Source: Nemertoderma westbladi
Lineage: Eukaryota > Animalia > Xenacoelomorpha
DNA: 47,521 nt
Reading direction: 5' to 3'
Assembly (NCBI GenBank): GCA_032718475.1
Contig: JAUCBJ010008479.1
Span: 1-47,521 of the forward strand
Of the stretch, positions 1,372 through 47,521 are shown in pieces (within the stretch, counting starts at the first letter, position 1; every line of letters begins with the position of its first letter). A program made the position numbers and the translations under genes. The notes beneath the pieces were generated by a model. That model worked only from the letters and a program-made list of their open reading frames with translations. It was not told where the DNA came from and made no database searches.

Positions 1372-1450
1372 ACAGATTCGTGTAGATTCGTCGGACCGCA
1401 TATTACCTAATAAAGTAATAAACTTACATAACATGTTTGTAAAAGCTTTT

Positions 1451-1580
1451 GTGGACATAACAAGCCATTTTTATCCGCAATATACCGTGTAGGTGTTTTA
1501 GCGGACATAACAATCCATTTTTACCCGCTATGTCTGCATGTGTGCTTTAGCGGACATAACAAGCCATTTTCTCCGCAATG
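1451..1580 (+). repeat. ~50-bp tandem repeat (2.6 copies) at the start of U3; also present in the 3' LTR
   Basis: G(C/T)GGACATAACAA(G/T)CCATTTT at 1451, 1501 and 1550, with homologous intervening sequence. Confidence 0.85.
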
Positions 1581-1671
1581 CGCTTAATACTCTAAAGGCC
1601 GGAACTCAGATGACGACATCTACCAGCTGATTTGCTGACATGGAACTTTCCCTTGTTCTTTGTTCGGCTCA

Positions 1672-1743
1672 GCCAATCAGAGCGATTTTAATTTTATGTG
1701 GAAAAGGAGCCTATGTAAACCGAGCAAGTCTGTGTATGTCAGT
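1672..1743 (+). promoter_or_regulatory. Candidate LTR Pol II promoter (CCAAT box, TATA-like box, Inr)
   Basis: GCCAATCAG at ~1672, TATGTAAA at 1712-1719 and TCAGT initiator at 1739-1743 (canonical ~29-nt spacing). AATAAA at 2227 and 2515. Confidence 0.45.
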
Positions 1744-2606
1744 AGTAGTGTTTATCTTTCTAAGCCCAGAACACCGGCTTAGGATTCTTCTGTACTTCTG
1801 TGGAAGTTTCAGACTTTGGCCAGAACATTGGATGGCTTTGATTAAAGAAACGTAAAACTATTACTGGCCATACTACCCCACGGCCATACTCAATGCACTA
1901 CGATTTGCATAAGTAACATATACTGATTGTTCACCGCATTATTTTACTGTTTGTTATAATTGTTATATATGGATGGATATGTTATTGTATTTGGAGAATA
2001 ACGATAAATAATCATAAACCCCAATCTTCTTGATTACTGAAGGTAAGAGGGACCAGTTACCTGTAGCAACGGCGACTTACATTATAGTGGTTTTTATGTG
2101 AATTAAATGCTATTTCATAATCCCTACATGTGTCAGTTGCTATCCTCCTTATGCATGATCAAATTCAGTGACGGTCGGCAGATCAGTGTGAAGTGGTGTT
2201 AAGTCATGTGCAGTAGTGTGACTGTTAATAAAGCATCTCCTAAAGAATGCGCCTTTTACGAAACTCAATAGCCATCTAGTTGTGATTAGTATAAGTCATA
2301 ACTCTGTTTTTATACTTAAAGCGCCTCGTCCTAAAGGAACTGTTAATATTTCCCCGAAAGTGAATATATTGTCAGAGATTATATAGTAACGATCAATCGA
2401 ATAATACAGTAGGTCTGCAATGCAATAATAAGTCAAAGCATCCGAATCCAGTCTCCCTTAACAGTGGGTGAATGGTTGCGCATAGACTGGCTTCGGCTAA
2501 TGTTATTTCAGTGTAATAAATAATTTTGTAGGCTAAAGTCGATTTATAAACAAGAAGACACCTAAAATTGGCAGGTTAAACTGCTAAAGGTCTAAAAGCG
2601 CAAACA

Positions 2607-2619
2607 GTAATAGTTTTAC
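2607..2619 (+). other. Non-tRNA primer-binding position, complementary to an LTR-internal motif
   Basis: GTAATAGTTTTAC immediately follows the LTR (no TGG). It is the exact reverse complement of GTAAAACTATTAC at 1852-1864 and 16399-16411. Confidence 0.7.
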
Positions 2620-4394
2620 TAGTTTCTTTATTGCACCGTAGGCAATAAAGTCAAAGGTACCGGTCGAACGGTAAGCTGTAGGCGTAACTGCCCAACTGCC
2701 CGAACCGGTACTTACAGGTACAACAGTATTATTAGATTTTGATAATTATATACCAGTAGGTCTTGATATTTAATCAGGGACGGCCGCCCTGGTTTTTTAT
2801 TGGGATTTTACTTATTTCTGTCAGTTTTATTTATCAGTAAGTGTAATATTGAGCAGAAGGAGTGTAAGCCTGCTCAGATTGTACAGATAATATGTAGGCT
2901 GGATTGTTGTCTAGCTGTTGTTAGGTCTGAAGAGATTGCAGTGTGTGTAGAGTGTAGGTCCGATAAAGTACTAGTTAGGAAAGTGGGGGCATCCAGTGTT
3001 GTAAGGTGAATCCGCCCCGAAAGAATAAGTCGTACTACTCGGTTAGAACGCATACTAACTAACCATTTCGGAGTCTGCATATACTGTAGTTTATTTGGGC
3101 TTGACAGTAGTCTGCCAGCATTTGGTTTGAATTTTGTTTGTATAGTCTGCACGGGTAGCGTAATATTTATCATTCAGAGTTTATGCAAGTATTCGCAACC
3201 TTCAAATACCCCAAGTTTATTCCTACAGTAATTGTGCTTGTTATACATACTGTTATAGTTAAATTAACCCCGGTACTACATCAGGGCTGCTTGGCGTAGG
3301 TAAAGACTGGTGATTTTATGCTCTAGTCACTCCAGCAGATGCCGTGGTTCTTTTAGCTGTTCAAGTATATTTAACTGCTGGTTATTTGTTGTATAAGTAT
3401 TTGTACCTAATCTAGGGTTTAGTGTACAGTACTTTCCGAAGGTAATTTAGTTTGTAGGCAGTATATTTGTGTTGTAAAGTGGTTAATAGGCACGTTAGCT
3501 CTGGTTGGCTGCGGTAATTAACTTCTAGGTAAGGACACTCCAGGTACATAACGTAGTACTTATAGTGCTGTAGAGCAAAAAGACTATAAGTCGTCAGACG
3601 GTGGTATTTTCTTATCTGGACAACGCAATTTATTTACTACTGCTTAATTATTTTCAAATACCGTAGTATCCTGTCCATTTGTAATAACCAGAAATTCTAA
3701 CTCCCTGTTAGACTGGTTTGTAGACTTCCTGTAAAATTACCCTAAAATTTGTACCTGTAATTTGTTATTGTTTATTTAGAGATTGTAATCTCACCCTATA
3801 TGTAAGTAATTAGTAGTAATAAGTAACTTAGTAAAGTAGAATTATTTGTTTTAGTGTCCAACAGGTAGCACTCCACTGAGAGCGTTTAGCTTCTGTGTAG
3901 TGACCCTTACCAGAAATAATAACATTTATTTCAAACATTATCAAAACCCATTATACGGGTATATATAAATATATTATAAATCAACTCAAACAGATTTATA
4001 AAATAGTAGGCCTGTCATACATCAATTAGGTCTTAATATCAGTTGGACTACTGCTTAATAACAGTAATAAAGTAAAGGAAAGTAACTCTAAAATTCAGAA
4101 ATTCAGTTATTCTAAAATAATTGACATTGCCGTTATTTATAGTAGGCTTATTATATTTATTTATATAAATTTATGCTGAAATTATATACCGGTATTCTGT
4201 AATTAATTCTAGTCTATAATAATACTTATATATACTATAAGTGTATACCGGTATCCTAATATATTATACATATATATCGCGTTACATTGAGTAACAATAT
4301 CGGTAATTAATTATTAGGCTTACAGTTGATACTGAATTACTAGATCTGCTTTAACTGTTGATATAATAGTAGGCATTCAACTGTATAATCAAAC

Positions 4395-4961
4395 ATGGCT
4401 GACACAAAGCAAACTCTGTCAGATAGTCTCCTAGAAACAACAGTCTGCAACTCAGACAGGAGTGTAGAACATCTTAGACCGAAGTTCAAGTCCCCTCCTA
4501 CTGTAAGAAAGGTCATCCCTCCAGTAGTAGTATCAGACCCTAGGCTGGTAAAGCACCGTAGGTCTATCATAGGCACTCGAGCTCAAGTCAAGCGGGACCA
4601 AGAGGCAGCTGTTAAACAGCATCAACATCCGAACCGAGAACTTATTTCTCAGCGGCCCGATAGCTCCAGTAGTTCAGATACTGTAGAGTTGACACCAGAG
4701 ATCGGAGCAAAGATGGCAGAAGCGGTTTATTCGGATCCCCTTCTCATTCTTCCTGAAGCCGTACTCACTAGGGTATTGATCATGGTGGAGGAACATCAAA
4801 TCGATTGGGCGAGAAGTAGGCGATCGACCAAGGACAGTTATGCGGGATACACAATGGAGGGACTGAAGTCTATTGTCGAGACGCAATGGAACTTCCCCGG
4901 CCCGGACTCTCGTTTAACTTATCGGAAGCTGCCTGGGAGGACTTATACCGGATGGGAGTAG
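4395..4961 (+). CDS. 188-aa ORF at the head of the element 1 coding region (probably frameshifted gag N-terminus, or a separate ORF0)
   Basis: ATG-initiated after a 1.8-kb leader; overlaps the next ORF in another frame; no recognisable motif. Confidence 0.45.
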   Translation: MADTKQTLSDSLLETTVCNSDRSVEHLRPKFKSPPTVRKVIPPVVVSDPRLVKHRRSIIGTRAQVKRDQEAAVKQHQHPNRELISQRPDSSSSSDTVELTPEIGAKMAEAVYSDPLLILPEAVLTRVLIMVEEHQIDWARSRRSTKDSYAGYTMEGLKSIVETQWNFPGPDSRLTYRKLPGRTYTGWE

Positions 4962-7900
4962 TAAAGGATACTCGAGATCCCGCTGTGTGGAAGAGGTCGG
5001 CAGCAGGATATGTCCAGGGATTCTTCAGCTCTTTGGAGCGATTAGAGGAACACCTGTTTCAACAACCTCACGGACCTCAAGAGCAGGGAGAGCTGCTTTA
5101 TCAAGTTCGAGAACGAATTCTACGGATCAGACTAATCCTTTCAGCCTTTGAGGAAGCCTCGAAGAGAAGCCAAGACACGTCGTTGCAAGTCGCCATAAAG
5201 ACTTGGTTCCAACGGGTGAGTCTTAAAGTCCAAGGAACAGCCTCATGGAAAATTCAACTAACCGAACGCTCGACCCAAGGAGAATCAACAGACGCCGCCT
5301 TTTCTCAAGTGGAAAGCAAAGTTACGACAGAAAAACCTCAGAAGAAGGACGCTATTGACATCTATCTGTTGGACTATCAGCGATTTATAGGAGACAAAGA
5401 GTTAAGGAGACGGTTAGCTGGACTTCACCCTAAAAGTGGGGGAGCCAAATTTGTGTTAGACTCATTAGATGCGGAAATTTTAGCCTCGGATCGAGCTAAA
5501 TTTGAGGAAAAAATCCGCATTGTTAGAGTCCAAGAAGAGCAGCTAAAGAAAAAACAAATAGAAGACAGAAAAGCAGCAACAGCGGCAGCGGCAGAAGTGA
5601 AAAGAAAAGCTGCAGTGGCAGAGGCAGAAAGAAAAGCGGCAGCAGCAGAGGTGAAAAGAAAAGCTGCAGTGGCAGAGGCAGAAAGAAAAGCGACAGCGGC
5701 AGAGGCAGAAAGAAAAGTGGCAATGGCAGAGGCAGAAAGAAAAGCGGCAGCGGCAGAAGCGGAAATAACTGCGGCAGTGGCAGAGGCAGAATGAAAAGCG
5801 GCAGCGGCAGAAGCGGAAAGAACTGCGGCAGAGGCAGTGGTCAAAGCGTTCTGCTTTGACCACTGCCTCTGCCGCAGTTCTTTCCGGAAGGCATCTGAAG
5901 AGACAACCCAACTCGAGTTGGAAAATCTTCAAGAGAAGCAAGACTACTTAAATAAACAGATAACAGCTAGTCAGATGCAGATGATAAGTCGATCTACTCC
6001 CAAGAGACAGGGATTTACATCATCTGATGAAGGTGATACAACAGATCCTTAAGGCGGAGGAAATAGATCTCGTTCCAACAGACGTAGAAGAACACCCCAC
6101 CGTCAGAAATTGCCTAATTTGCCCCCAGTTGTGAGAAGGCAACTAGCTAGTGTAGACTTAGGTAGTACAGAATCCACAGACCAAGTTATTAGAGTAGAAA
6201 GACTCCCTACTATAGTAGATGAGCCTGAAATAATTGGGCCTGTTCTCGAAGCCACCTCTTCTGTGATAGAGACCCCTGTACATCCAGAACCTAACTCTAA
6301 ATTCCCTTTGCACGGTACTAAACTACCTGTGCCCAGTAGAATAGTCCCTAAATTCCCCCCGGTCCTGGACGCCGAGCAAGACATCAACAATTTGTCGCCC
6401 GTCGTCCCTCGTCTGCCCGCTACTATGTTGGCGGCTCCCGCTTCGGCAGTAGAGTAGGTGGATGAGGGACGGCGGGAGATTTGTCTCCTGCTCGGGCAGC
6501 TGAGGGAATACCGGGTATGTTCCTCCCAGCAGGTCCGGGAGTTGGAAGGGACTGTTCAGCAGTTAAAGGGAACAGTAAGAGAGGGTAGGTTAGAGTTGCA
6601 AGAAGTGCAGCAGAGTATCGCGTTAGAACGCAATAAATTGGTAAATATACAAAGGGGTATACCACCACCCCCTGTAACAATGTGTCAACCTGTTAGGTCT
6701 GAAGTATTTCATGCGCAAGGTGTGGAGCCTACACGCATCTATACTGCTAGTGAAGTAGAAACTCCTATAGTAAACCCTATTAAGGATAATTATAAACCTG
6801 TTGATAATTATATTCCATATAGACCTGATCATAATCCGAGAAATTTATATACCGATAACTTGATATTAAATAATACGATGGCCCAAGAAAGTTTTATGCG
6901 TCAAATGGCTAGAACTGAAGCCCGTCAAGCGGTAAAGGTGGGAGAGATCGTCAAGTTCAATGGAGATGAGATGAAATGGTTACCTTTTAATGAATATTAT
7001 AAAGATAACATACAGAGTTCCGTACTATCCCACAGAGAGAAACTAAGATTCCTCATCGAGTGCTTGGAAGGACCTCCCAAGTTAATGGCGTTAAAGTTTA
7101 TTGGACATCCAGATGGATTAAGACAAGTTTGGGATACACTAAACATCAGGTATGGTAATAGGACTAACATAGCTAGGTATTTGTATGCGAAATTAGTAGC
7201 GCCCCGAACGTTTCTTAGCAGCGGGATTATAGAATTTTCCGATGAGATCCAGGAGATCTGTAGACAGCTAGATTGGTTAGGTAAGTCTCATGAATATCAG
7301 AGTTCCATGGTTATTGGAGCCGTAGCATATACTTTGTCAAAGGGTGGAGTAGGTACTCGTTGGGACAAGAGAGTGCTCTATATGATGGACCAGCAACAAA
7401 GAGACCCTACCATGGCTGATCTCATGTCATTCTTAAATGGAGAGGTAAGATTACAGCTCCTAAAACAGTCCCGATAGAAGTACCGGAAAATAAGGTAATT
7501 GAAAAACCGGTTTCTAGAAGAAAGGTAACACCAGTTTGTTATACAGATGACGGCAAAAGCCAAACCTCTCAAGAGGAGAATAGCGGGAAAGACACCGAAA
7601 GATCTTACTATGTCAACAAAGCACCTAAAGACGTAAGTAAATTTAAGTCTCGAACCAGTGACAGGAGAGAACAGGTTACAAAAACTCCTCCTACGTCTCC
7701 TAAGATAATTCATGGAAGAAAGCCCGAGGAAAGAACCAGTGTGCACAACACCACACAAGGTAAAGTAAGTAACATCAAGCCAAAATGTGCATTGTGCGAC
7801 GGGCCCCATCGTTTAAGTGTATGTGATGAATTCTTGAAGAAATCCCTAAAGGATAGACGTGATGTCATGAGGGATAAGCGGTTGTGTTATAATTGTCTCA

Positions 7901-7990
7901 GACAAGGACACCAACGACGAACCTGTTACTCGGACATGAGGTGCGCTAAGTGCGGCGCGAAACATCATATCTTGCTGCACACAGAATTTG
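4886..7990 (+). pseudogene. gag: Bel/Pao gag with long coiled-coil N-terminus; in-frame stops and a frameshift
   Basis: ORFs at 4886, 5837, 6110 and 6458 are all in one frame, separated by single stops. AEAERKAAAA repeats; core KFNGD..W..F / KLRFLIECLEG / WDTLNIRYGN; triple knuckle CALCDGPHRLSVC, CYNCLRQGHQRRTC, CAKCGAKHHILLH. Confidence 0.85.
5814..5886. repeat. Perfect 34-bp inverted repeat with a 5-nt loop inside gag
   Basis: CGGAAAGAACTGCGGCAGAGGCAGTGGTCAAAGC (5814-5847), loop GTTCT, exact reverse complement at 5853-5886. Confidence 0.95.
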
Positions 7991-10900
7991 AAAGAACCAG
8001 CCCGAGTCAGGTAAGTGAGTCTGAACTACATGTCCAATTCAGTGATGTGAACGACACTGACCACAGCTCTGAGATGGAAGGATTTTACACGGACGAATTC
8101 TCCGACGAAAACGAATCCTGTTATATGATAAACACCGCGGTGTATCGAGCGCTTACGTATGAGACTGAAACCGATAAAAAAACGCACCCAGCTATTCCTG
8201 ACCGACAACCATCTTGGAAAGCGCCAACTTCCAGCGTCGGAATCCGGGAATTCCTGGTAGTTCAGCTGAGAGTCCATGGATTAGGTAGGAGTTTTATAGT
8301 CAACGCCCTCCTGGACTCCGGCAGCACAGGAATATTCATCGACAAAGAACTAGCCAAAGACATCTTTGCTGGACAACCCAAGTTCCGAACTAAGTTGAAC
8401 CTTTCAGGAATTATGCAGGTTTGGAAATCTACAGTAGCTACGGACTACTATGTAGGAGCGGTGTCCACTCCCCAGGACAAACTAGGAGAACATAGCAAAA
8501 GGTCAGTAAAAATGGTGGCGATAAAGAACTTTGCTACCAGCCAAGTAGAACCTTACAACTGGGATGAAGACAATTTTACCCAGCAGCATGATATCCCTAA
8601 ATTCAACACCGACTACCCAGGGGTGCAAATACTGATCAGTCAAAATGCGCATGAGGCGCTTGAGACATTAGAAAAACGGCCTGCTCGACCGCAACCATTG
8701 CAAACATATGCGGGGAGAACAAGAGTAGGTTGGTACTTCACTGGACCTTCCCGTAGAACACTCATGGAAAGATTACCTACCGAACAAATACATCAGGTGA
8801 GTGAGTGGGAAGAAGAAATCAGTAAGGGAGAGATCACACCTGAGGGAACACCATACTCCTCAGATAACAACGATATTACTCAATTATTTGACGAGGAAAA
8901 TACAATCGACCTCCTCACCGAGAGTGAATTTTGGAAAAACCAAATGCAACTGTCCCATCTTGTTAATCATGGCGGACAACTTGACTACAACGACGAGCTA
9001 AATGAGGTGATAGATCGACACATCGCTAAGATTCGTGATGAACACGCAGTACGATTCTTTACTCAAGAAGCTGTAGAGCCTAATTCCTATGACAAAGCAC
9101 TATCGGTCGAGGAGGAAAGAGCCAAGCAGATCCAAGAAACGACTACACGTTTTCTTAAAGATCAAGGTAGGTATGAGATTGGTCTGCCATTCCGATGGCG
9201 AGAACCAAACTTTATCAATAACAGACCGTTAGCTGAGAAGAGAATCGCGCAACTACATCGGCGTCTTACAGCCAATGCTTCAGCTAAAGAGATGTATAAG
9301 ACCCAGCTAAAGAAATTTATCAATAAGGGATACGCGGAGCGAGTACCAGAAGAAACACCGTAACTGAGAACATATTATCTAACACATCATTACGTTCCCA
9401 AACCCGGTAAACCCAACGAAGTCCGGGTAGTATTCGACGGCTCCGCCCTTTACATGGGCCAATCCCTTAATTCTGAGTTGTTGCCGGGACCCAACTTACT
9501 ACAATCCTTGTTGGGAATACTCTTAAGACTACGGCAATATTCTATCGCTTTCGCCTCAGATATAGAAGGTATGTTCTTACAAGTCAAGGCACTGGATAGG
9601 GATCGAGACAGCCTACGATTTCTGTGGTGGCCTGAAGGAGACCTCAACCAAAAACCCGTGGAGTACTGGATGACCATCCAGGCTTTTGGAATCATCTCGA
9701 GCCCCTCGAACGCTTGTTCAGTAGTGTGTACCACTGCTGATGACAACCGAGACGCCTTATCTAAAGCGGTTATCGACAACATCAAACCGGATATATTCAT
9801 GGACGATAATTTAAAGTCCCTCCCATCGGTGGAAGAAGCCATTGATGTAGCCAAGGGAACGGTAGAGTGTTTGAAGCGTGGTGGATTTCGACTAACCAAA
9901 TTCACTAGTAACTCCCGTGAGTTTCTGGAATCAATCCCGGAAGAAGATCGAGGTGTTAAAGAGCTGAACCTTATCAAGGACGATCTTCCGGAAACCAAGA
10001 CGCTTGGTTTGAAATGGGACACGGAGAGAGATATCCTGTTTTTCCAGCTAAAACAGCAAGATAATCCAGTTCGAACTAAACGTATTTGTCTAAGTATCCT
10101 GAGCACTTATTTCGATCCATTGGGATTTATTAGCCCCATTACATTGGTTGCTCGGAGTTTAGTACAACAAATGTGGCTTGAAAACCACTCGTGGGACAAT
10201 CCACTTAAGGGAGAACTACTAAAGAAGTGGATGAAATGGGAAGATTCTCTACCATCCATCGAGAACTTTACCATTTCCCGTTCATATTTTGGTCACGTTC
10301 TCCCCACGTATTCCTATCAACTCCATGTGTTTGGAGACGCCAGCGATATGGGATTAGGTATAGTAGCCTACCTGAGAGTTGAAACTCCGGATGGAATTAA
10401 AGTTGCCTTGGTTACCTCTAAGGCCTTGATAAACAACAAACTACGAGTTCCTCGAGCGGAGTTAAAGGCGGCTCTATACGCTACAGCCATCGGCCGGAAT
10501 GTAACAGAACAGATCGACTATCCACTAGAGAAAACTGTCTATTGGACTGATGCTTCACTCGTTTTGGAGTATATAACCAATGAAGTCTGTCAGTTCAGCA
10601 TCTTTGTTACCAACAGAGTAGCCATTATACTTAGTCGCACTAATGTAGATAAATGGAGACATTGCCCTGGGACGATTAATCCAGCCGACATCGCCTCCAG
10701 AGGAGCGACTCCTCAAGAACTGATAGATACTCCGGACTGGTTAGGTGGACCCGACTTCCTAAGTAAAGAAGAAGATGAATGGCCTCCTCATCTTACCACG
10801 GCTGAGATTAGACAAGCCAAGGGAGCGGAGAAAGTCAAACCTAAAACCCGGACGAGTAAATCGAAGTTATTTAAACCCGTGATAGATCTGTGTGTACTAC

Positions 10901-12618
10901 ACATTTCCAGGGACGACGCTGTGGATCTAAACTCCCCCGCCACAAATAAATCTGTTGTGGAGATTAGAGAGAGAGACTGGTAATCTGGAACACCAGATGT
11001 CTCGCAGGGACTCTCACCTCTCCTGCAGAGAGCGATAAATCACTATAGCTCCTGGAATTGGCTTTGTAAGGCCGTCGGATATTTGAAGCGATGCTTCCAT
11101 CATCACTACTCCAGGATGAAGATCGCTAGTGATACTCCTCCACTGACATCTGCGCAGGTCCATGCTATTAAAGATCTTTCCAAATACAAGGTATCAGAGC
11201 GGTTTCTGACGGAGAAGATCAGTTACCAGGAGCATGAAGAAACCAATAAGCAGATACTGAGACTCCTGCAATGCTATGAAGATTCCGATAAGTATTTCCT
11301 GTTGTTGAGAAATCCACAGATGCGCTTAAGGGATCGTTTCTCTAGCACAATGATAGATGGATTAATACGCGTTGGAGGGAGACTAACTAATGCTCCATTA
11401 TCCTTTGACACTAAGTTTCCCATACTCATTAGAAATCTTGAAATACAAATCAAGATGATTGTAGATGTTCACAGTAGGCTTTACCATGCTGGTAGAGAAC
11501 GAGTTCTTAGCGAAATTCGAACTCGCTTTTATTTTCATAAACCCCGTAGAGCTCTGAACAAAGTTCTTAGGAACTGTATACCCTGTAGGAAAGCATTTAG
11601 TAGGTTTAACACAGTGAGAGGCAGAATTACCTAGGGAACGCGTAAGCTTCTATGAACCCCCCTTTACTAATACCGGTGTGGATTTATTTGGCCCTATTGA
11701 AGTATATCGTGCTAGGATAGGACTATAGTCAAGCGATGGTGTGTCATCTTTGTCTGTATGACTTGTAGAGCGATCCATCTAGATATGGTGAACGATCTAT
11801 CTACCAACAGCTTCATACTGAGTTTACGCCGACAGATCGCTCGCTTTGGAACTAGCAACACGATGAGATGTGATAAGGGAACGAACTTCATTGGCGCCAA
11901 TAATGAGATCAAGGCTTACGTTAAAGATTGGAACCAAAGACAGGTGGACAATCAGCTAAGGGTAACAGCATCTAGCTGGACCTTCAACGCCGCCGACGCC
12001 CCTTGGTGGGGAGGAATTTGGGAGAGATTAATAAGAAGCGTGAAGACCGCATTTTATTTTATAGTGCCGTGCCGCGCGTATCTCACCGACAAACTTTTGC
12101 GGATGTTAATGGAAGAAATCGCAGCCTATCTTAACGAGAGACCGCTTATGCCAGTCTCATCGAGTCCCGACTCCCTGGAAGCGCTAACACCCGCGCACTT
12201 CCTACTGAAGAAACCTGTAGCCATGCTACCACGATCGGAAATCACGGACGGAGACGAATACTGCCGACAAACTTGGCAACTTATGCAGTTATTATCCCAT
12301 TGTTTCGCTGACCATTTCGAAAAACATTATCTGCCTACGCTACAACTTCGAACCAAGTGGTTTGCGCAGCAAGAAAATGTCAGCGCCGGAGAAATGGTCC
12401 TTATTGTGGGGTCAGATCTTCCACGTAAGCGGTGGCAGAAAGGTCGTATCATCGAGACTCATATCTCCGATGATGGTTTAGTGCGATCGGTAGAACTCAT
12501 CATCATGCGACGTAACTTTAAGAAACCTGGAATTGTATTCGAAATGCAGCAGCTCAATCGCCCAGTTGGTCGTTTATGTTTACTGGAAAGAGACAGAGAA
12601 CTATCCGGAAACTATTGA
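7991..12618 (+). pseudogene. pol: Bel/Pao pol (protease, RT, RNase H, integrase), disrupted
   Basis: PR ALLDSGS; RT RVVFDGS, SDIEGMFLQV, FMDD; RH LHVFGDAS, PRAEL, WTDAS, NPADIASRG; IN H-H-C-C, GVDLFGP (shifted frame), CDKGTNF, GIWERLI. Stops at 9361 and 10981; compensating frameshifts at ~11610-11720. Confidence 0.92.
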
Positions 12619-13580: not shown

Positions 13581-14456
13581 TAGTGATAAATAATAAAATT
13601 TACAGGAATAAATTTAAATTCATATCCTCTCATGAATTTGATAAATTGTCATTTTATACAATTTATAACATTCCCAAAATTCCATTAATTAATAGATCAT
13701 GGGAGCGGAGATTTACCCTATTAAGTATATTAGTGTCAGAAAATCTCCAATATATAGTCAATAGCTGATAAAATTCATAAAATCATGTATAAAGGGGAAT
13801 ACTGCAATTAAAGGATTACTATAAAATAGCATCCCAGATCTGTATGCATGAGAATTACCCTAATTCTACCGCTAGCTTTCCATAATGTCACCATAGCAAC
13901 AACCACGCTAGAATTAGAAGCGAGTTAAAAGTAGAATAGAAAACTTGCCCCATTGAATAGCATATGGAATAAATGGCACACTGCTAGTATCCAGGGATAC
14001 ATAATAATAACGTGACATTCTGAAGGCACTTGACTAACGGACAAATGACCCGAATGTGTGACAGAATGTGTACAATTTGTGACAGTTGTGTGGAATTTGT
14101 GCGTTTATAGGTGAATGTTACTATTAAAGTGTGTTTACAGTAGCGAGTCGCAGTTGTGAAAGTAACCCTACCTCTGTAGCAAGAACCTGAAGTAAATCTA
14201 GGCCCTTGGGACGGACAGTGGAGTGACTCACGCTGAGTATTGTTGTCGTTGTGTAGCTACTACGTTGGCGAAAGGCACAGCGGCAACAGTACATTAGCGC
14301 TGAGGAGCTTGCGCTGTCCGGGGGCATTGAGGGGGAGGCAGCGACCGACGACCGCTTGCCTAATTATAATTAATTATAATATCGATAAACTCATATAGCA
14401 GCGATGACTGCGTTGATAGAAGATGATCTTGGTATCAGGGAACGATATACCCTACC

Positions 14457-15906
14457 ATGCAAGCGTTTGTTGATAGTTTAATACGCGGCGACGCTAGTCA
14501 ACCCACTACGGAGGACGATGGCCGTTATATAGAACTGCCAATATCAAAGGAACAACTCACGCGTAAATTGGACTATAGAAAATTCACCGCTCGCTATAAG
14601 CATCGTAATGGTACGTATATGGACTTCTTAACTACTGGTCATCCTATCGATTTACACAATACGGATGATGTAGACACCGAAAGGGAAATGGTTCTATTTA
14701 AATATCATACCCAGCGGAGTCGGAACGATAAACTGAGAATCGAACACGAAAAATTATATTCGAAACTGACTCGAAAGAAAGATGTTGAAGAGCCGGATAA
14801 ACGCAGTGACTTCAACGAATATCTGGAATTATTGAGAGAAACATATCTCAATATAGCCAGTCAACAAAATCTCGAAACTCAATATCCTCAAGGTATACAT
14901 CATGACCCTATGATAGAACTCAAACGACTCTATTTCACTATGATGTATCTTACCACCGATCGACCGCCAATTGTTGTACCGGATAGCTTCGAACAGATGG
15001 AGAAATATTGTAAAACTGGAGAAAGATCACCCGCGTTTCCCCTACAGGACGTGCGTCTTTGGTATTATTGCGATGAATGCCCTAGACCCAACCAACAAAC
15101 GGAAAGACATAAACATCCCCGGAGACGTTGCGCTAAACACCGTTTTACTCGCTATACTTACGGGATTTTCGAGCGAATCTTGTTCGACGTATCACCCGCG
15201 CTCGCTCGACTCAAACGATCCTTAAATAACCGATGATCAGAATTCCGGAATACTTGGTCAGACCTCCTCATTCCCTAGTGAGACCTCAAACTCTTGATCC
15301 TAATAGTATAATGAACTGTACTCACTGTTCAAAGATCTAGTGTTACCCTAACAATTAATCGGTGGCACTCCGGTAGTGGGCTCTCTAGATATTTGCCCAT
15401 CCTACCTAGCCGGATTGGGACGCAGACATTTAATATTGCCGTTTAACCCGTATAATCGTCCCGGTTTAACCCTGATACAACCTGTCATCAAGGCGGAGGA
15501 GAGCGTTGTACGAAACGCGTTAGACGCTATTCGGCAAAGGATCGGAAAATGAACTTACTATTGTTTAGAGAAACGTAAATTGCAGCAGCAAGTTCCAGCA
15601 GTAAACGAATTGGCTTTACCTCAGTTCGATTGGGAAATCCAGAATCTATAAGAAGATTTCGAACTTGGACGACCCTATTCTCTGCGAGAGTTTTTGGACG
15701 AACGCATCCAACGACAAGCGGAGGAAAATCAGCTCGAGGAGAAGCATATCAAAATGGACGAGACACTGACCGTAACCCTAAACCTTTTGATGCAACCTTC
15801 ACCCAGGAGTTATAGACCTCCTAGTAAATTGGCTCACCCCAAAGAGAAAAGGACTCTTGCTAGCCTCAAAAAACTTCGTAAACGCCGTTCACGTAAGAAG
15901 GACTAG
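14457..15906 (+). pseudogene. Extra ORF (ORF3) of element 1, frameshifted, with a ~2.7-kb internal deletion
   Basis: Co-linear with the N-terminal ~385 aa and the last ~50 aa of the 1345-aa ORF at 43434-47471. Junction MDE/TDRNP at ~15762. Confidence 0.9.
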
Positions 15907-15984: not shown

Positions 15985-17151
15985 TGTAAAAGCTTTTGCG
16001 GACATAACAAGCCATTTTTATCCGCAATATACCGTGTAGGTGTTTTAGCGGACATAACAAGCCATTTTTACCCGCTATGTCTGCATGTGTGCTTTACCGG
16101 ACATAACAAGCCATTTTCTCCGCAATGCGCTTAATACTCTAAAGGCCGGAACTCAGATGACGACATCTACCAGCTGATTTGCTGACGTGGAACTTTCCCT
16201 TGTTCTTTGTTCGGCTCAGCCAATCAGAGCGATTTTCATTTTATGTGGAAAATGAGCCTATGTAAACCGAGCAAGTCTGTGTATGTCAGTAGTAGTGTTT
16301 ATCTTTCTAAGCCCAGAACACCGGCTTAGGATTCTTCTGTACTTCTGTGGAAGTTTCAGACTTTGGCCAGAACATTGGACGGCTTTGATTATTGAAACGT
16401 AAAACTATTACAGGTCATACTACCCCACGGCCATACTCAATGCACTACGATTTGCATAAGTAACATATGCTGATTGTTCACCGCATTATTTTACTGTTTG
16501 TTATAATTGTTATATATGGATGGATATGTTATTGTATTTGGAGAATAACAATAAATAATCATAAACCCCAATCTTCTTGATTACTGAAGGTAAGAGGGAC
16601 CAGTTACCTGTAGCAACTGCGACTTACATTATAGTGGTTTTTATGTGAATTAAATGCTATTTCATAATCCCTACATGTGTCAGTTGCTATCCTCCTTATG
16701 CATGATCAAATTCAGTGATGGTCGGCAGATCAGTGTGAAGTGGTGTGAAGTCGTGTGCAGTAGTGTGACTGTTAATAAAGCATCTCCTAAAGGCGCCTTT
16801 TACGAAACTCAATAGCCATCTAGTTGTGATTAGTATAAGTCATAACTCTGTTTTTATACTTAAAGCGCCTCGTCCTAAAGGAACTGTTAATATTTCCCCG
16901 AAAGTAAATATATTGTCAGAGATTATATAGTAACGATCAATCGAATAATACAGTAGGTCTGCAACGCAATAATAAGTCAAAGCATCCGAATCCAGTCTCC
17001 CTTAACAGTGGGTGAATGGTCGCGCATAGACTGGCTTTGGCTAATGTTATTTCAGTGTAATAAATAATTGTCGTAGGCTAAAGTCGATTTATAAACCAGA
17101 AGACACCTAAAATTGGCAGGTTAAACTGCTAAAGGTCTAAAAGCGCGAACA
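15985..17151 (+). repeat. 3' LTR of element 1 (1167 bp)
   Basis: Direct repeat of 1438-2606, followed by TSD ATGTT. Confidence 0.95.
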
Positions 17152-33176: not shown

Positions 33177-33266
33177 TAAAAATTTATAATTGTAATTAAA
33201 TTGAGTAATTTATTACATTTGAGTAAGTTCACTGGTATTATTGAAACGGCATCATCATCATTCATC

Positions 33267-39546: not shown

Positions 39547-39825
39547 TTACATACAGTATTGAACAAACTCGAGTTGGATTATGTAACTTTATTATATATT
39601 TAGTGAATATTTGTGTGTTCTACTTAGTATTTTACAAGTAAGATTATTGTTTATATAGCGGAAACGTATGTAAGTTTATGTAGTACTGTAAATGAAAATT
39701 ACTTTCAATTTACAATTATGTACTGTATAATTTATTTATTGTGTTGAGGAATAAATCATATCAGTACAGTAGTGTTATGTAATTATTTTATTGATTTAGA
39801 TTTTGCATGATATGCAAGGGAGGAG

Positions 39826-40100
39826 TGTCGTGCAATATATTATTTTATCCACTTAGGAGATCATACCTCACACTTACATTAATTGATTTACTGTGCAAAC
39901 AATATGATACAAGTTACAGTACCACTTTATGTGCCAACATGTGTTCGACTCATACTATAATTAATTTGATATATGAAGTATTGAGGTGACGGGATTTGGG
40001 TAGATTAATTAACATTTATATTATCAAGAATATAGTAAAGTTTTACATTAAAAGATTATTTTCCATTACAACCAAGTAATTGGTTGATACATGTACGACA
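39826..40100 (+). repeat. 3' LTR of element 2
   Basis: Direct repeat of 32892-33166. Confidence 0.97.
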
Positions 40101-42130: not shown

Positions 42131-43355
42131 TGTTCGCGCTTTTGAAGACCTTTAGCAGTTTAACCTGCCAAAATTTATATGTCTTTTAGTTAATTAAAAC
42201 ACCTTTAGCATACGACAATATTTTATGCTAATAAACAAAACATTACCCGAAGTCAGCCCATGCGCGATCATTCACCCGATGGATCTACACCCGGGAGGCT
42301 GAATTCGGCTGCTTAAATTTTATTATTGCAGTGTAAGGTTGCAGTGTAAACTTACTGTATTATTCGATTGATCGTTAATAATTAATTTCTGACAGATATT
42401 ATTGGCTTTCGGGAAATATTAACAGTTCCTTTAGGACGTGGCGCTCTATCTATTTAAACAGAACTAGGACTTATACTACACGCAACGATACTGCTTATGA
42501 TTAAAGTATAAAGCGCATTCATTAGGAAATGCTTTGTTGCCAATCACAATCATGCACACTATTCTGCCGACCGTCAGTAAATTTGATCACACATAAAGAG
42601 AGCAGCAATTGACTCATGTAGGGTCTGCTAAATAACATTAGATTCAATACACACCACATTAATATAAATCGCAATTGCTATATATAGCCTGTCTCTCTAA
42701 CCTGTAGTGTATCAAGAAAATTGGGAAATTTGGGTGATTTATCAGTATTCTCCAAAGAGCAATATTTCCATCAACAAATAGATACAATTAATTAAATTAA
42801 ATTAAATTAAATTAAATTAAACTGACGGTAAATAACAGTACAAACAATATGATTAATAGTGAGTTAATTAGATCAGATAAGATTGATTGCTTAGTTAGGT
42901 AACAGTTTATACTTTCGATAATTTAAGCAGTTTTACTAGAGTTCTTCCCAAAAAGCCGGTGTTATGGCGAAAAATGGGAACACAACAACAGAATCATATA
43001 AAATCATATGACTACCAACTATACGAGGATACCAACTACCCTTATTCCCCGAAGCTCCCGTTCAACACAGAGGATGAGCAGTGAGATAGGAAAATTCAGT
43101 TCAGTAGCTCTGGGATAGGTCGAAATCAACGCCCACTCAAATTCTATTGGCCGATACGGACAGCAAGGCTAAGGCAACCTCTCTAAGCTAGTTGGCCGAT
43201 TAAACTGAGCCCAGATACCTCCGTACAGCACATCAGCCAATAAGCTGGTAGCTTGCACTATTTTAGTTATAAATCCCTTTGAGAGTATTCTAGCGACTGG
43301 GGGGGAACTGGCCAGCAAAGGCAAACGTATCAGTTATCCCACAAAAGCTTTTACA
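42131..43355 (-). repeat. 3' LTR of element 3 (1225 bp)
   Basis: TGTAAAAGCTTTTG...AAAAGCGCGAACA on the minus strand; 3' half alignable to element 1 LTRs, 5' third divergent; (TTAAA)n at ~42787-42821. Confidence 0.9.
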
Positions 43356-43433
43356 CCGCTCCCAGAAAATGGGATTTAAGTCTATAAAATATACAAAATC
43401 ACAGTTTCTAAAATATAAAAATACTCTAAACAG

Positions 43434-46400
43434 TTAGTCTTTCTTGCGCGGACGGCGTTTACGCAGTTTTTTAAAGCTAGCAAGAGTCCTTTTCTCTTTG
43501 GGGCGAGCCACTTTACGAGGAGGGCTATAACTCCTGGGTGAAGGGTGCAATATGATTGCATCAGAAGGTATGGGATTACGATCGGTATATCCGCCGGTCG
43601 AAGTACCGGGTTGATTGACATCAACGTCCGGGGAGAGGGGTCTAACGGCTTTGAGAGCTCGTTTCAAGACAGCCGCTCTTACGGGTCCTGTACGAGTGGT
43701 CTGCACGAGGGCCGTGGGTGGACCATAGGTAGTTAGAAACTTCCTTGGTTTAATGGTTCTTTCCAACTCGCGTTCGCGGGCTCGATACTCGTAAGGCCGT
43801 CGATATACTTCCTGTAACTCGGGGTGTGAGTTGACAAATAAGTCTCCATAGGCAGGGTCTTGACGGATAAAGTTTATTAAGTTGTAAGAATGGATGTCAC
43901 TCGGATTAATGCTCCTGAGGAATTTGCATACATATTTAGTTGAAATACATTCTCCAACGCGCTTTAATAGTTCATAACTTGATAGGCGTGATTTTTGCTC
44001 GACGGATGCAAACAAATAAGGATGGAACGCATAAACTCCTTCGTAAGCGCGTCCAGGGTAATAGCGATGGCGTGAATCACAATGTAAATCAGCGTTCGCT
44101 TCCCAAGCTCTGATATAACGTAGTACAATCATTTCATCTACGCTCTCTAAATCATGATTAAAGGGACAATCAAAGCTGGCGTGTCCTTTTAATTGACAAT
44201 GATGGCATTGAGTCATAAATTGGGGGCAGACAGCAAAAATGTGCAAATTATTAAGCCGACAATATGCACAATAGATTTCCATCGACGGTTGTTCGTGGAA
44301 ATAGGAACAGAGATCGTTGGTGTCCATAGACGTAATATGGTCTCTCGATGCGCACAGCCGACAACGTTGTCGAGAAACATAATTGGCGTGGCGATAATCA
44401 TACGCAGTAAGACACTGTGGACCTTGATACCATTCCAATATATAGTCGCTATCGCTACTCCGAGACGTGGGGGGCTGAATCTCTTCAGATTCTAAACATA
44501 TGGGTTCGTCTTCCCCTTGTATAGTTGAGGTAGGCATGGCCGTCTCCTCAAGTGGACCTATCGTCTGAATTTCTACGACAGAATAACCTGTGGGGATCCG
44601 AGGTCTTTGGATAACCGAGGAGTGCAGGTTTATTATACAAATGTCTTTGAAAATAGCGAATCCAGCGCTATCTAACTTCTCCGCAGCCGAGTCTCTTAAG
44701 CTGAGCTTGGTCAAAGCGCGGTCTTTGAATTGGCTATCCACGTTGCGAAACGGGGTTAAAAACCGTCGGAAACATTCAAAGCGGATGAATTTATTATGTT
44801 CATCTAGCTTAGCGAGTTTGGTCCCAAGGATTAATGGATGGGCGCGTATAGTACGACTGCACACATCGGCTAGCCAACCGGAAAGTGCGGTGTTTTCGAA
44901 GATCGTGTAGATAGCTAAGGAGGGACGGAGTGGAACACTCATGAAGCTATACACGGCGCCAGGTGCGGTCAACGGTCCGTCAAAGTATAATCGAGAATAA
45001 TGGTCTCCGTATACTTGTTGATAGTTGATGGGATTTCCGACCTTGAAATTCCACCCGTATTCCTGAAAGGCAAGATGTCCGATGGAAGTTCGTTGCACCT
45101 TTGTAATGTTGCTAGACGCATTAGCATACATGGTGCGAAAGAAACCTCGGCCTTCGGCCCAAGGAGCTATCAGCTGAGTATCCACGAAAGGATAGGGGAT
45201 ATTCTCCATATTCCGAAAGTCGTTTTGGAGATCTCCGTAAACAGCTGAGCCGATTTTAATGATTCTTTCGTTGAATAACATCTCGAGAACGGGCTGGGGT
45301 AACATCGATCCATCGATACCCATGGCCGGTTTGCGTTCGGTGTCAATGACGTAACGCTGCGCGAGTTCGAATTGTCCATGTCGGAGATTCTTTTGCGTTT
45401 CGGTGAGAGTTTCAAAGGAATAATCGATCACGTCGGAACACGCTCGCGTAAACACGTGAGTGGAACCAGCTAATCCGCGTATGTGTATCATGCGCGTAGT
45501 TCCTAATTCTCCGATTGGAACGCTACCTTCGTTATCGTAAGTAACAACGCCATACATCTCAATGATATTAAGAGTTTCATTCCACTCTTTGGTGGCGTTC
45601 TCGAGGGTCATCCCTACCGGATGCCACAAGGTGGCGCATTGATTAGCGTCAGGGAGATCACTATACTTCATGTATCGAGTGGTATACGTCTCCACATTTC
45701 CATATCTTTGTATTTTCTCCTCCTCGAATAATACGTCTAGATTCCAATGGACTAATCGAGTTTTAATAAATCCATCGAGATTATAAGGAGGTTCTGTATC
45801 CTTCTCTATTCGAGAAACGTTATATGGTTTTCGAAATGAGTTTACCTTTACTAACTGATCCAGATGTTTTTGCAATTGTTCGAGTTCGACAATGTCCAGA
45901 GGATTTATTAGTGGTAGAAACTTTAAATTATGCGTCGGATCTTCTGGTTTTACCATATAATATTGAGTCAGATTAACGTAATAAGGGTGGTCTTTAATTC
46001 CATAAAAAGAGTTCTGTAAAGGTCTAGCGCGTAGGTTGACATCGTGTACCATACGACGGACAAGATCCGCTCGATTGTCCGGAGGTTCAACGAGTATACC
46101 GTCAACTCGAGCGGCCTCGATTGGCGGACGCTGTAACATAGGAGCGTCAGCGATAAGATTTTGCGATCTTATGCTGATATCAACCGGTTGGGGTTGTATC
46201 TTTGCGAAAAGTTTGTCGCCGAAATGAGGAACCATCGAGGGATGACGGACGGTTTTAGAGTAGAGATCGGTTATGAGTATCTGAGCTTCGGGTTGGGCTA
46301 AAGCGGCTTCTTCTCTCTCATCCATTTCCGTATGTTTCTCCTCTAGTTGATTTTCCTCCGCTTGTTTCTGTAAGCGTTCTTCTAGAAACTCCTGTAGAGA

Positions 46401-47521
46401 ATACGTACGTCCAAGCTCGATGTCCTCTTCGAGGTTTTGGATTTCTCTATCAAACTGCGGCAAGGCTAACTCTTTAACCGATTGGACCTGCTGCTGTAAT
46501 TTACGTTTCTCTAGAAAATCCTGGGTTCCCTTTCCAATTTTCTGTCGGATGGCGTCTAGAGCGTTTCTGATGACACTCTCCTCGACTTCCGTGGCAGGTT
46601 GTATCGGAGTTAATCCTGGCCGATTGTAAGGATTAAATGGCGATGTTAGATGCCCGCGTCCCAATCCGGTTAAATAGGATGGTCGAATATCTAACGAACC
46701 TACCGCTGGAACCCCACCGATTAACTGCTCGGGTAACACCAAATCTTTGAACAGTGAGTATAACTCGGGAGGATCAGTGATACTGTTAGGATCAAGAGTT
46801 TGAGGTCTCACGGGGAAATGGGGAGGCCTGACCGAGTATTCCGGAACTCTGATCATGGGTTTATTTAGCGATCGTTTTAGACGGGCGATCGTAGGTGATA
46901 CGTCGAACAGGTTTCGCTCGAAACTCCCGTAAGTATAACGCGTAAAACTGTGTTTAGCACAACGTCTCCGCGGATGTTTATGTCTTTCCGTTTGCTGGTT
47001 AGGTCTAGGACATGAGTCACAATAATACCAAAGACGTACGTCCTGCAGAGGAAACGCGGGTGATCGTTCTCCAGTTTTGCAATACTCTTCCATTTGTTCA
47101 AAGCTGTCCGGGACAACAGGCAGTGGACGATCTGCGGTAAGATACATCATGGTGAAATAGAGTCGTTTGAGTTCTACCATGGGATCGTGATGTATACCTT
47201 GAGGATATCGAGTCTCTAGGTTCTGTTGACTGGCAATATTGAGATAGGTTTCTCTCAAAAATTCCAAGTAGTCGTTGAAGTTGATGCGCTTATCGGGTTC
47301 TTCAACGTTTTCTCTGTCGAGTAGGTTGCGAATAGAGTTCTCGTGTTCTATTCTCGGTTTATCATTACGATTCCGCTGGGCATGATATTTAAATAAAACC
47401 ATTTCCCTTTCGGTGTCTACATCATCAGTATCATGTAAATCGGTAGGATGGCCGGTAGTTAAGAAGTCCATATACGTACCATTACGATTCGTATAGCGAG
47501 CGGTGAATTTTCTATAGTCCA
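43434..47521 (-). CDS. Retrotransposon extra ORF (>1360 aa): DEDDy-like 3'-5' exonuclease, three CCHC zinc knuckles, basic C-terminus
   Basis: Uninterrupted frame, open past the window edge. ExoI VTYDNEG, ExoII LPQPVLEMLFNERIIKIGSAVYGDL, FVDTQ, ExoIII PLRPSLAIYTIFE. Knuckles CRLCASRDH..C, CAYCRLNNLHIFAVC, CHHCQLKGHASFDC; KKLRKRRPRKK. Confidence 0.8.
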   Translation of the reverse strand, partial: DYRKFTARYTNRNGTYMDFLTTGHPTDLHDTDDVDTEREMVLFKYHAQRNRNDKPRIEHENSIRNLLDRENVEEPDKRINFNDYLEFLRETYLNIASQQNLETRYPQGIHHDPMVELKRLYFTMMYLTADRPLPVVPDSFEQMEEYCKTGERSPAFPLQDVRLWYYCDSCPRPNQQTERHKHPRRRCAKHSFTRYTYGSFERNLFDVSPTIARLKRSLNKPMIRVPEYSVRPPHFPVRPQTLDPNSITDPPELYSLFKDLVLPEQLIGGVPAVGSLDIRPSYLTGLGRGHLTSPFNPYNRPGLTPIQPATEVEESVIRNALDAIRQKIGKGTQDFLEKRKLQQQVQSVKELALPQFDREIQNLEEDIELGRTYSLQEFLEERLQKQAEENQLEEKHTEMDEREEAALAQPEAQILITDLYSKTVRHPSMVPHFGDKLFAKIQPQPVDISIRSQNLIADAPMLQRPPIEAARVDGILVEPPDNRADLVRRMVHDVNLRARPLQNSFYGIKDHPYYVNLTQYYMVKPEDPTHNLKFLPLINPLDIVELEQLQKHLDQLVKVNSFRKPYNVSRIEKDTEPPYNLDGFIKTRLVHWNLDVLFEEEKIQRYGNVETYTTRYMKYSDLPDANQCATLWHPVGMTLENATKEWNETLNIIEMYGVVTYDNEGSVPIGELGTTRMIHIRGLAGSTHVFTRACSDVIDYSFETLTETQKNLRHGQFELAQRYVIDTERKPAMGIDGSMLPQPVLEMLFNERIIKIGSAVYGDLQNDFRNMENIPYPFVDTQLIAPWAEGRGFFRTMYANASSNITKVQRTSIGHLAFQEYGWNFKVGNPINYQQVYGDHYSRLYFDGPLTAPGAVYSFMSVPLRPSLAIYTIFENTALSGWLADVCSRTIRAHPLILGTKLAKLDEHNKFIRFECFRRFLTPFRNVDSQFKDRALTKLSLRDSAAEKLDSAGFAIFKDICIINLHSSVIQRPRIPTGYSVVEIQTIGPLEETAMPTSTIQGEDEPICLESEEIQPPTSRSSDSDYILEWYQGPQCLTAYDYRHANYVSRQRCRLCASRDHITSMDTNDLCSYFHEQPSMEIYCAYCRLNNLHIFAVCPQFMTQCHHCQLKGHASFDCPFNHDLESVDEMIVLRYIRAWEANADLHCDSRHRYYPGRAYEGVYAFHPYLFASVEQKSRLSSYELLKRVGECISTKYVCKFLRSINPSDIHSYNLINFIRQDPAYGDLFVNSHPELQEVYRRPYEYRARERELERTIKPRKFLTTYGPPTALVQTTRTGPVRAAVLKRALKAVRPLSPDVDVNQPGTSTGGYTDRNPIPSDAIILHPSPRSYSPPRKVARPKEKRTLASFKKLRKRRPRKKD

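Follow-up and report, generated by a model that had tools for sequence, protein, structure and literature searches.

A putative DEDDy-like exonuclease with zinc knuckles encoded by the third gene of a Bel/Pao LTR retrotransposon family in Nemertoderma westbladi

Background

Third open reading frames (ORFs) encoding nucleases of the DEDDy type have been described in bdelloid rotifers, where the long terminal repeat (LTR) retrotransposons Juno and Vesta as well as the Athena/Terminon elements carry a DEDDy-type ORF3 (Rodriguez, Kenefick, Arkhipova 2017, PMC5408684). The bdelloid proteins possess a DEED motif, their activity was left open, no selection data were given, and a role in 3'-end processing or in silencing was proposed; the finding is repeated in two reviews (PMC6431247, PMC6338049). 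In this work we analyze a 47,521-nt stretch of DNA from the xenacoelomorph Nemertoderma westbladi (contig JAUCBJ010008479.1, positions 1 to 47,521; henceforth "the window"), in which a Bel/Pao LTR retrotransposon, element 2, carries a long third gene, ORF3, predicted to encode a DEDDy-like 3'→5' exonuclease followed by three zinc knuckles. A preliminary description of this sequence had named the bdelloid precedent, and the precedent is real.

The extra genes published for Bel/Pao elements are of a different kind. In the env-bearing belpaoviruses (Atlas, Cer13; Tas) they encode membrane fusion glycoproteins with transmembrane (TM) helices, in Atlas fused in one polyprotein (PMC9094657), which agrees with the preliminary statement that such ORFs are typically viral glycoproteins. 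The same description knew of no DEDDy ORF in Bel/Pao, and we likewise found neither a published Bel/Pao exonuclease ORF nor a DEDDy ORF3 with knuckles in the literature searched, whose coverage leaves out Repbase and most subscription papers. Among cellular proteins, TbRND is a trypanosome exoribonuclease of the RNase D family whose C-terminal CCHC fingers bind the single-stranded RNA (ssRNA) substrate, and the combination of a DEDD exonuclease with CCHC fingers has been called very unusual (PMC7797062). Egalitarian keeps the catalytic tetrad and the Tyr residue, although RNA localisation does not depend on them (bioRxiv 10.1101/2025.08.03.668247).

ORF3 as the third gene of a Bel/Pao family

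ORF3 of element 2 is an intronless, stop-free frame on the minus strand that runs from its first full codon at 47519 to the stop codon at 43436-43434 (Table 1). It comprises at least 1361 codons, and its 5' end lies beyond the window; given the base composition, 1361 codons in a row without a stop would occur with a probability of ~1e-32. A related copy, element 1, is situated on the plus strand of the same window, where a likely ATG at 14457 opens the corresponding frame ~38 codons further upstream, giving ~1400 aa for the whole ORF3 protein.

The classification of the family follows from element 1. Its LTRs are flanked by a 5-bp target-site duplication (TSD), ATGTT, at 1433-1437 and 17152-17156; like the 3' LTR of element 2, they have TG...CA ends, and this combination of termini and short TSD is the one expected of Bel/Pao LTRs. 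Its gag-pol, although broken, reveals the Bel/Pao domains in the order protease (PR), reverse transcriptase (RT), RNase H (RH), integrase (IN): DUF1759 (E=1.8e-12), three gag knuckles, the aspartyl protease, RT, Peptidase_A17 (E=9.4e-37), Integrase_H2C2 (E=2.9e-08) and DUF5641 (E=8.7e-20), while the gag-pol of element 2 lies beyond the window. Behind the pol of element 1 and a non-coding spacer there is a remnant of ORF3, 79-85% identical to ORF3 of element 2 over aa 1-~394 and matching it again in the last ~35 aa; the remnant lacks ~2.7 kb that carry the exonuclease and the knuckles. The two elements also have in common the polypurine tract (PPT) and the LTR ends. Because of this homology and these common ends, we regard the long frame as ORF3 of a Bel/Pao family: judged by sequence, it is the conserved third gene of a high-copy Bel/Pao LTR retrotransposon family, whose undeleted members we estimate at ~18 kb. 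The link between pol and the exonuclease is indirect, since element 1 lacks the exonuclease part and the pol of element 2 is off the window; none of the contig pieces listed from public DNA runs (see below) spans both pol and the exonuclease part.

No TM segment was found in ORF3 (the top 19-residue hydropathy is 1.37), and neither a signal peptide nor a hydrophobic N-terminus: the probable N-terminus, available from element 1 at 14457 only, is hydrophilic. ORF3 thus lacks the features of an env glycoprotein and is not env, as the preliminary description had maintained. Other claims of that description withstood the analysis to different degrees. The stop-free frame of more than 1360 aa, the N-terminal Cys/His cluster and the NLS-like tail (a putative nuclear localisation signal) are all present, the latter two being kept in element 1. 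The position between pol and PPT is borne out on the PPT and LTR side, which adjoin the end of the ORF, and holds on the pol side by homology to element 1 only. The CCHC knuckles are indeed there, three in number at 44363→44166, with the patterns C1053-x2-C-x4-H-x9-C, C1084-x2-C-x5-H-x4-C and C1105-x2-C-x4-H-x4-C, of which the first is atypical owing to its 9-residue last loop. As for the coiled coil, aa 301-400 are rich in Glu, Lys, Arg and Gln, but the heptad check gave only a modest result. The Cys/His cluster falls outside the region covered by the distant homologs discussed below. Derivation of the ORF3 knuckles from the gag knuckles of the element itself was considered and rejected, with scores of 39 and 39 that are within the shuffle range, versus 67 and 119 for the homologs.

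Table 1. Positions in the window of elements 1 and 2 and of the parts of ORF3
Feature	Position	Strand	Basis
Element 1 5' LTR	1438..2606	+	LTR comparison, TSD
Element 1 LTR-internal candidate self-primer; perfect 13-nt core 1852-1864, LTR offset 415	1843..1866	+	complementarity
Element 1 primer-binding position without TGG; pairs with 1843-1866, one 2-nt bulge	2605..2630	+	complementarity
Element 1 broken Bel/Pao gag-pol; leading frames from 4389 without Pfam match	4389..12618	+	Pfam
AT-rich non-coding spacer, ~1.8 kb, from pol to ORF3 of element 1; longest frame 77 aa	12619..14426	+	frames
Element 1 ORF3 remnant	14427..15906	+	matches aa 1-~394 and ~1325-1361; frameshifts, stops
Element 1 3' LTR	15985..17151	+	97.6% identity to 5' LTR
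Element 2 3' LTR, 1225 nt, TG...CA	42131..43355	-	74% identity to element 1 LTRs over last ~630 nt
Element 2 LTR-internal 11-mer, offset 417, complementary to the element 1 primer-binding region; candidate self-primer site	42929..42939	-	complementarity
PPT-like tract, short, weakly purine-rich, beside LTR; same in element 1	43356..43369	-	sequence comparison
Element 2 ORF3, at least 1361 aa; 5' end beyond window	43434..47521	-	ORF list, translation
Putative zinc site: Cys/His cluster, aa 167-190	46950..47021	-	sequence; kept in element 1 remnant
Charged helical, coiled-coil-like stretch, aa 313-410	46290..46583	-	composition; heptad check modest
Predicted DEDDy-like 3'-5' exonuclease domain, aa ~640-895	44835..45602	-	homologs, profile and fold searches
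Three tandem CCHC-type zinc knuckles, aa 1053-1118	44166..44363	-	sequence, homolog alignment
Short conserved post-knuckle block, aa ~1133-1168, common to P0002 and P0003	44016..44123	-	alignment
Basic NLS-like tail, KKLRKRRPRKK	43440..43472	-	sequence; kept in element 1

Several further observations concern the two elements. Element 1 has a long 5' leader (2607-4388), and ~2 kb of coding-like sequence (4389-6457) precede its DUF1759 gag region, where the two frames scanned gave no Pfam match; a 27-nt tandem repeat at 5524-5847 encodes a helical repeat rich in Ala, Glu, Lys and Arg. Inside the spacer a 57-nt direct repeat (86%) occurs at 13235-13291 and 13468-13524, a possible regulatory element. 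A bacterial promoter scan of the spacer, which is not applicable here, returned chance counts. The LTR of element 2 contains a simple repeat of the (AATTA)n type at 42780-42830.

The exonuclease-like domain and its distant relatives

A HMMER search with aa 561-1200 over 1.84 billion representatives returned only two proteins at E<=0.001, P0002 (648 aa, E=5.1e-07) and P0003 (575 aa, E=1.5e-04). They are 23-30% identical to ORF3, and each aligns with it twice, once over the exonuclease-like block and once over the knuckles. The layout common to all three comprises the exonuclease, a low-complexity spacer, three knuckles and the short conserved block; P0002 and P0003-P0007, all proteins from ENA, exhibit the exonuclease and triple-knuckle layout without the ~600-aa N-terminal extension. 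P0003 has five members at 99.3-99.8% identity and a canonical YxxxD motif. The contigs that encode P0002 and P0003 reach lengths of 9.4 and 11.5 kb. In the exonuclease region the alignment scores are 165 and 113.5, while the highest values among 300 shuffles for each were 67 and 60.

The alignment with these relatives allows for the assignment of the putative catalytic residues. ExoI is formed by D662 (45536) and E664 (45530; codons 45536-45528), ExoII by D763 (codon 45233-45231), and ExoIII by Y871 (44909) and E875 (44897; codons 44909-44895). Our residue numbers exceed those of the preliminary description by 16, and the D646, E648, D747 and Y855 listed there are real, being D662, E664, D763 and Y871; the fourth acidic residue, E875, has to be added, which corrects the motif to D-E-D-(Y)-E. 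A placement of ExoIII at Y855-S859 in the 1361-aa numbering was tried and discarded, since the homologs place it at Y871-E875. The domain contains an insertion of ~30 aa relative to the homologs. ExoI DxE, the ExoII Asp and the ExoIII Tyr are invariant in all three proteins, while the last acidic residue is Glu in ORF3 and P0002 and Asp in P0003. Thus, Y871-x3-E875 retains the Tyr and the spacing of the canonical YxxxD with Glu where DEDDy enzymes have Asp, and the motif reads D-E-D-E rather than DEDD. With this substitution, and with no family hidden Markov model (HMM) passing its threshold, the predicted exonuclease of ORF3 is a variant and not a canonical member of the DEDDy group.

The profile of the three sequences compared to 177,635 sequences from the PDB gave only two matches at E<=10, Egalitarian (E=0.18) and EXD2 (E=0.45), both of them DEDDy proteins; the EXD2 alignment puts Y871 and E875 on the ExoIII motif of EXD2, and D763 aligns with the ExoII acid of both proteins. 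In the ESM Atlas, aa 600-960 retrieved clusters of DNA_pol_A_exo1 at 0.92, behind two unnamed clusters (0.94 and 0.92), and the ten best family-bearing matches all have a family or clan in common. The top match of P0003 there is an Euglenozoan cluster annotated with DNA_pol_A_exo1 (100%) and zf-CCHC (61%), at 0.92 and with 194 of 256 features. In a Foldseek search with the AlphaFold model (predicted local distance difference test score, pLDDT, 35.4) the top ten matches are all DEDD nucleases, namely eight EXD2 chains, RNase D and Pop2, with a best E-value of 0.027 and none at E<=0.001. VIA with the same model over 48,161 chains found EXD2 as the best match (Z 5.1, rmsd 5.2, 99 residues aligned; the next row has Z 3.8), under the reliability level of Z 8. 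The phmmer search of ORF3 against the PDB gave only a chance match to ferritin (E=0.47).

None of the profile, language-model or fold searches is individually significant, and all point toward DEDDy proteins (EXD2, Egalitarian, RNase D). Because the searches agree and the catalytic motifs are invariant at ~25% identity, we consider it very likely that aa ~640-895 adopt the DEDDy fold. A DnaQ-type fold had been proposed for this region, to be checked with AlphaFold and Foldseek; every fold search indeed leads to DnaQ/DEDDy proteins, each of them weakly and without a confident model.

Other searches for relatives gave little. No homolog was found in the protein homolog search with aa 560-1200; the search with the three-sequence alignment retrieved nothing, not even its own members P0002 and P0003, and must therefore be insensitive; and P0003 retrieved only itself. 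Scans of viral and metagenome contigs revealed no relatives, and neither did tblastn against phage.

Selection and abundance

Comparison of elements 1 and 2 over 384 codons of aa 1-394 gave a ratio of nonsynonymous to synonymous substitution rates (dN/dS) of 0.09 (bootstrap 95% 0.06-0.13), with dN 0.088 and dS 0.98. The variants tell the same story. Among the 40 listed out of 928, 38 are within ORF3; 28 of these are at third codon positions, 32 are synonymous and six are not, and none creates a stop codon. The neutral expectation is 22-30% synonymous, and p for 32/38 is below 1e-11. In the exonuclease domain seven of the eight listed variants are synonymous, and the 12 indels listed out of 42 are all in the LTR and none in ORF3. 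ORF3 is under strong purifying selection. With no close cellular homolog among the 1.84 billion representatives, recent neutral capture of a host gene, which the preliminary description had named as a possible refutation, is excluded for the family.

In public DNA runs under the same organism label this family is both abundant and diverse, with 28,877 contig pieces in one run and 7,485 in another, from two studies. These pieces cover all four identity bands and all 30 bins, and several contig joints skip the middle of ORF3, as element 1 does. Strong purifying selection in so abundant a family suggests that ORF3 likely helped the element to spread.

A self-priming signature in element 1

No TGG-type primer-binding site (PBS) follows the 5' LTR of element 1. 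The 13 nt directly after this LTR pair without mismatch with a site at offset 415 of either LTR (1852; 16399-16411), and the polarity is such that a piece of RNA ending at this site would prime at the LTR end. A match of 13 nt was reached in 2 of 3000 shuffles and is unique among ~13,350 internal positions; if one 2-nt bulge is allowed, 24 nt can pair in the case of the 5' LTR (1843-1866 with 2605-2630). As a working criterion of self-priming we used a complement of at least 10 nt, situated 0-5 nt after the 5' LTR (PMC6317226); in element 1 there are 13 nt at offset 0. The LTR of element 2 is not alignable by blastn in the part with the primer site, yet it carries an 11-nt complement at offset 417, including the two bulged bases; such a complement was reached anywhere in 18 of 3000 shuffles and within offsets 395-435 in 2 of 3000, a range chosen after the site had been seen. 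Tests of duplex energy, with AT-rich sites, were moderate or null: in sets of 300 shuffles, the observed value was reached 6 times for the 5' LTR, 74 times for the 3' LTR and 114 times for element 2. In element 3, a Bel/Pao element of the window that lacks ORF3, a canonical TGG PBS is present and self-complementarity does not exceed 4 nt. There are no tRNA genes in the window. Taken together, the complementarity suggests that element 1 may start its own copying with its own RNA, a Tf1-like signature.

Five of the 24 substitutions between the LTRs of element 1 fall within offsets 396-431 (1833-1868 vs 16380-16415), around the candidate primer site; of the two versions of this site, the one in the 5' LTR shows the better pairing with the PBS.

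Possible functions of ORF3

We tentatively propose, with somewhat less than even confidence, that ORF3 is a nuclear 3'→5' exoribonuclease that trims host small-RNA guides or their precursors and thereby weakens the silencing of the element. As to its chemistry, two-metal catalysis by D662, E664, D763 and E875 with Y871 appears reasonably probable by analogy to TbRND, with the knuckles holding ssRNA and feeding its 3' end into the active site. The remaining steps are more speculative: ORF3 could be expressed separately, the 1.8-kb spacer being bridged by means of a subgenomic RNA or one started at an internal promoter; the basic C-terminal tail might mediate nuclear import; and the targets might be host small RNAs, either guides or precursors, with the result that silencing is weakened. 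A nuclear counter-silencing role is preferred here because of the long spacer that separates ORF3 from gag-pol, the NLS-like tail, and the kinship to proteins that handle small RNAs or RNA in general (EXD1, Nibbler, Egalitarian). A viral precedent exists in the arenavirus ExoN, which suppresses innate signalling (PMC7968707).

A number of points weigh against this proposal. The fourth acidic residue is Glu and not Asp, and conservation of the motifs does not prove catalysis, given that Egalitarian keeps five catalytic residues without needing them for RNA localisation. ORF3 has no Pfam exonuclease match, only a weak one to the knuckles, and the best Pfam exonuclease score in the family, that of P0002 (E=0.04), fails the cut-off. 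AlphaFold yielded no usable model (pLDDT 30.4 from the single sequence, 35.4 from the three-row alignment), so the fold matches are weak and not independent of the sequence. The between-copy dN/dS covers aa 1-394 only, and the sample for the nuclease domain is small, with eight variants among the 40 of 928 listed. Element 2's own pol is outside the window, and the link to pol runs through element 1 only. Finally, the small-RNA substrate and the effect on silencing are inferred, and an enzyme that trims 3' ends could instead serve the priming suggested by the self-complementary PBS.

In that competing scenario the element would prime with its own 5' RNA end in the manner of Tf1. Cleavage would leave a 3' overhang, which ORF3 would remove as far as the primer/PBS duplex, and synthesis could then begin at the end of the LTR. 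The absence of a TGG-type PBS in element 1, the polarity and length of its complement (13 nt perfect, 24 nt bulged, above the 10-nt minimum of PMC6317226), the 11-nt complement at offset 417 in the otherwise diverged U3 of element 2, and the opposite situation in element 3, with a TGG PBS and no ORF3, all speak for it. We nonetheless find it doubtful, as the Tf1 primer is reported to be made by the RNase H of RT (a title cited in PMC4600332), which makes an extra nuclease unneeded, and as a nuclear signal and a separate ORF suit work in cytoplasmic particles poorly. Moreover, the duplex energies quoted above are only moderately exceptional, the candidate primer site was placed by complementarity, and one element with both traits plus one with neither do not make a correlation. 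It is similarly unlikely, in our opinion, that ORF3 is a non-catalytic RNA adaptor, with the exonuclease fold and the knuckles binding the RNA of the element and the N-terminal coiled region recruiting transport or export machinery. Such a role, which Egalitarian plays for localised mRNAs and for the RNAs of retrotransposons, would accord with Egalitarian being the best PDB sequence match (E=0.18) and with the dispensability of its catalytic residues for RNA binding (bioRxiv 10.1101/2025.08.03.668247), as well as with the change from Asp to Glu at ExoIII and the long N-terminal extension with its charged helical stretch, not found in the 575-648-aa homologs. However, the Egalitarian match falls short of significance and EXD2 ties with it, and the three proteins, at ~25% identity, all keep the acidic set where most other positions drift.

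An activity directed at DNA, with ORF3 as a WRN/DnaQ-like 3'→5' exonuclease that proofreads or trims the ends of cDNA before integration, seems to us quite improbable, the more so as integrase processes the cDNA ends itself. EXD2 is the top structural neighbour, the tail is basic and NLS-like, and DEDDy enzymes do include exonucleases acting on single-stranded DNA (PMC5408684), but tandem CCHC knuckles typically bind ssRNA, as in TbRND (PMC7797062) and in retroviral nucleocapsids. Very improbable indeed is that the resemblance to exonucleases is spurious, or that the ORF is a recent host capture drifting neutrally. The lack of a significant Pfam or structural match and the unusable AlphaFold models would agree with the former, but searches of four kinds lead to a single family and the catalytic motifs are invariant in distant homologs; the latter is contradicted by the dN/dS of 0.09, the absence of a close cellular homolog among the representatives searched, and the absence of introns.

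It is tempting to extend the proposal of a nuclear exoribonuclease to a scenario in which a Bel/Pao lineage dropped the tRNA primer, and its own knuckle-guided DEDE-y exoribonuclease finishes the self-primer, trims small-RNA guides, or both. The enzyme would then be a member of an old, hidden family of accessory genes combining the exonuclease with the triple knuckle, with P0002 and P0003 as representatives in other organisms. We put this forward with considerable reserve, as unlikely to hold in its entirety.

Other features of the window

Element 3 (32891-40100), the second Bel/Pao element of the window, has 276-nt LTRs that are 100% identical, a TGG PBS and no ORF3. Its pol, 29-34% identical to that of element 1, is interrupted by an insert of ~440 nt (37335-37775) whose inverted ends measure 65 nt and which resembles a miniature inverted-repeat transposable element (MITE). 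At 30042-30725 there is an array of six C2H2 zinc fingers with an 84-nt period, and upstream of it, at 26801-28024, a 407-aa frame rich in Ser, Thr and Pro without Pfam match; the two are probably exons of a host zinc-finger gene. Fragments of non-LTR retrotransposons, in direct and inverted partial copies, are situated at 28831-29759, 22116-22876, 96-903 and 17337-17972, and 28831-29691 contains RVT_1 plus DUF6451. A 68-nt tandem array occupies 24378-25221; beside it, a 190-aa frame (25088-25660) presumably resembles, to judge by eye, the C-terminus of a P-element-like transposase.

Comparison with known systems

Like ORF3 of element 2, the bdelloid ORF3s are RNase D-like DEDDy ORFs in the env position, without a TM segment and with an altered acidic motif. 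Juno and Vesta are gypsy-like elements. The hosts of the bdelloid genes are the Juno and Vesta clades, and the main text of PMC5408684 mentions no Bel/Pao element; nor does it describe tandem CCHC knuckles, a coiled coil or a length of ~1400 aa, unlike what we find in element 2. The published DEED further sets the bdelloid motif apart from D-E-D-E. TbRND exhibits the same order of DEDD exonuclease, linker and tandem CCHC fingers, but it has four fingers and is a cellular enzyme of the mitochondrion, where guide RNAs are its substrates for trimming (PMC7797062). In the comparison with our model it stands in row 47 of the VIA result at Z 2.7, and as there is no significant sequence match the likeness is one of analogy; the domain layout of the two proteins is probably convergent. 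The nearest neighbours in sequence and fold are the metazoan DEDDy proteins Egalitarian, EXD2, EXD1 and Nibbler/Mut-7, with the same ExoI/II/III layout; these are neither borne by mobile elements nor fused to knuckles, and none of the matches reaches significance (E 0.18-0.45, Z no higher than 5.1).

With the env genes of belpaoviruses ORF3 has in common the extra coding capacity behind pol, whereas it is predicted to be soluble, is separately placed and has a basic tail. Element 1 resembles Tf1, Tj1 and the sushi group in having a PBS complementary to a site inside its own 5' LTR and no tRNA-type PBS (PMC4600332, PMC6317226). Self-priming of the Tf1 type has been described for chromoviruses of the Ty3/gypsy group and proposed for some plant copia elements, while element 1 belongs to Bel/Pao, for which the literature passages searched name no case.

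ORF3 thus extends the idea of a DEDDy ORF3 from the bdelloid elements to Bel/Pao, in which the known extra genes are viral envelope proteins, and adds to it a module of knuckles like that of TbRND, together with the strong purifying selection observed in a family of great abundance. It raises two questions: whether LTR retrotransposons of animals deploy nucleases against silencing by piRNAs (PIWI-interacting RNAs) or siRNAs (small interfering RNAs), and how the primer is made in Bel/Pao elements that are independent of tRNA.

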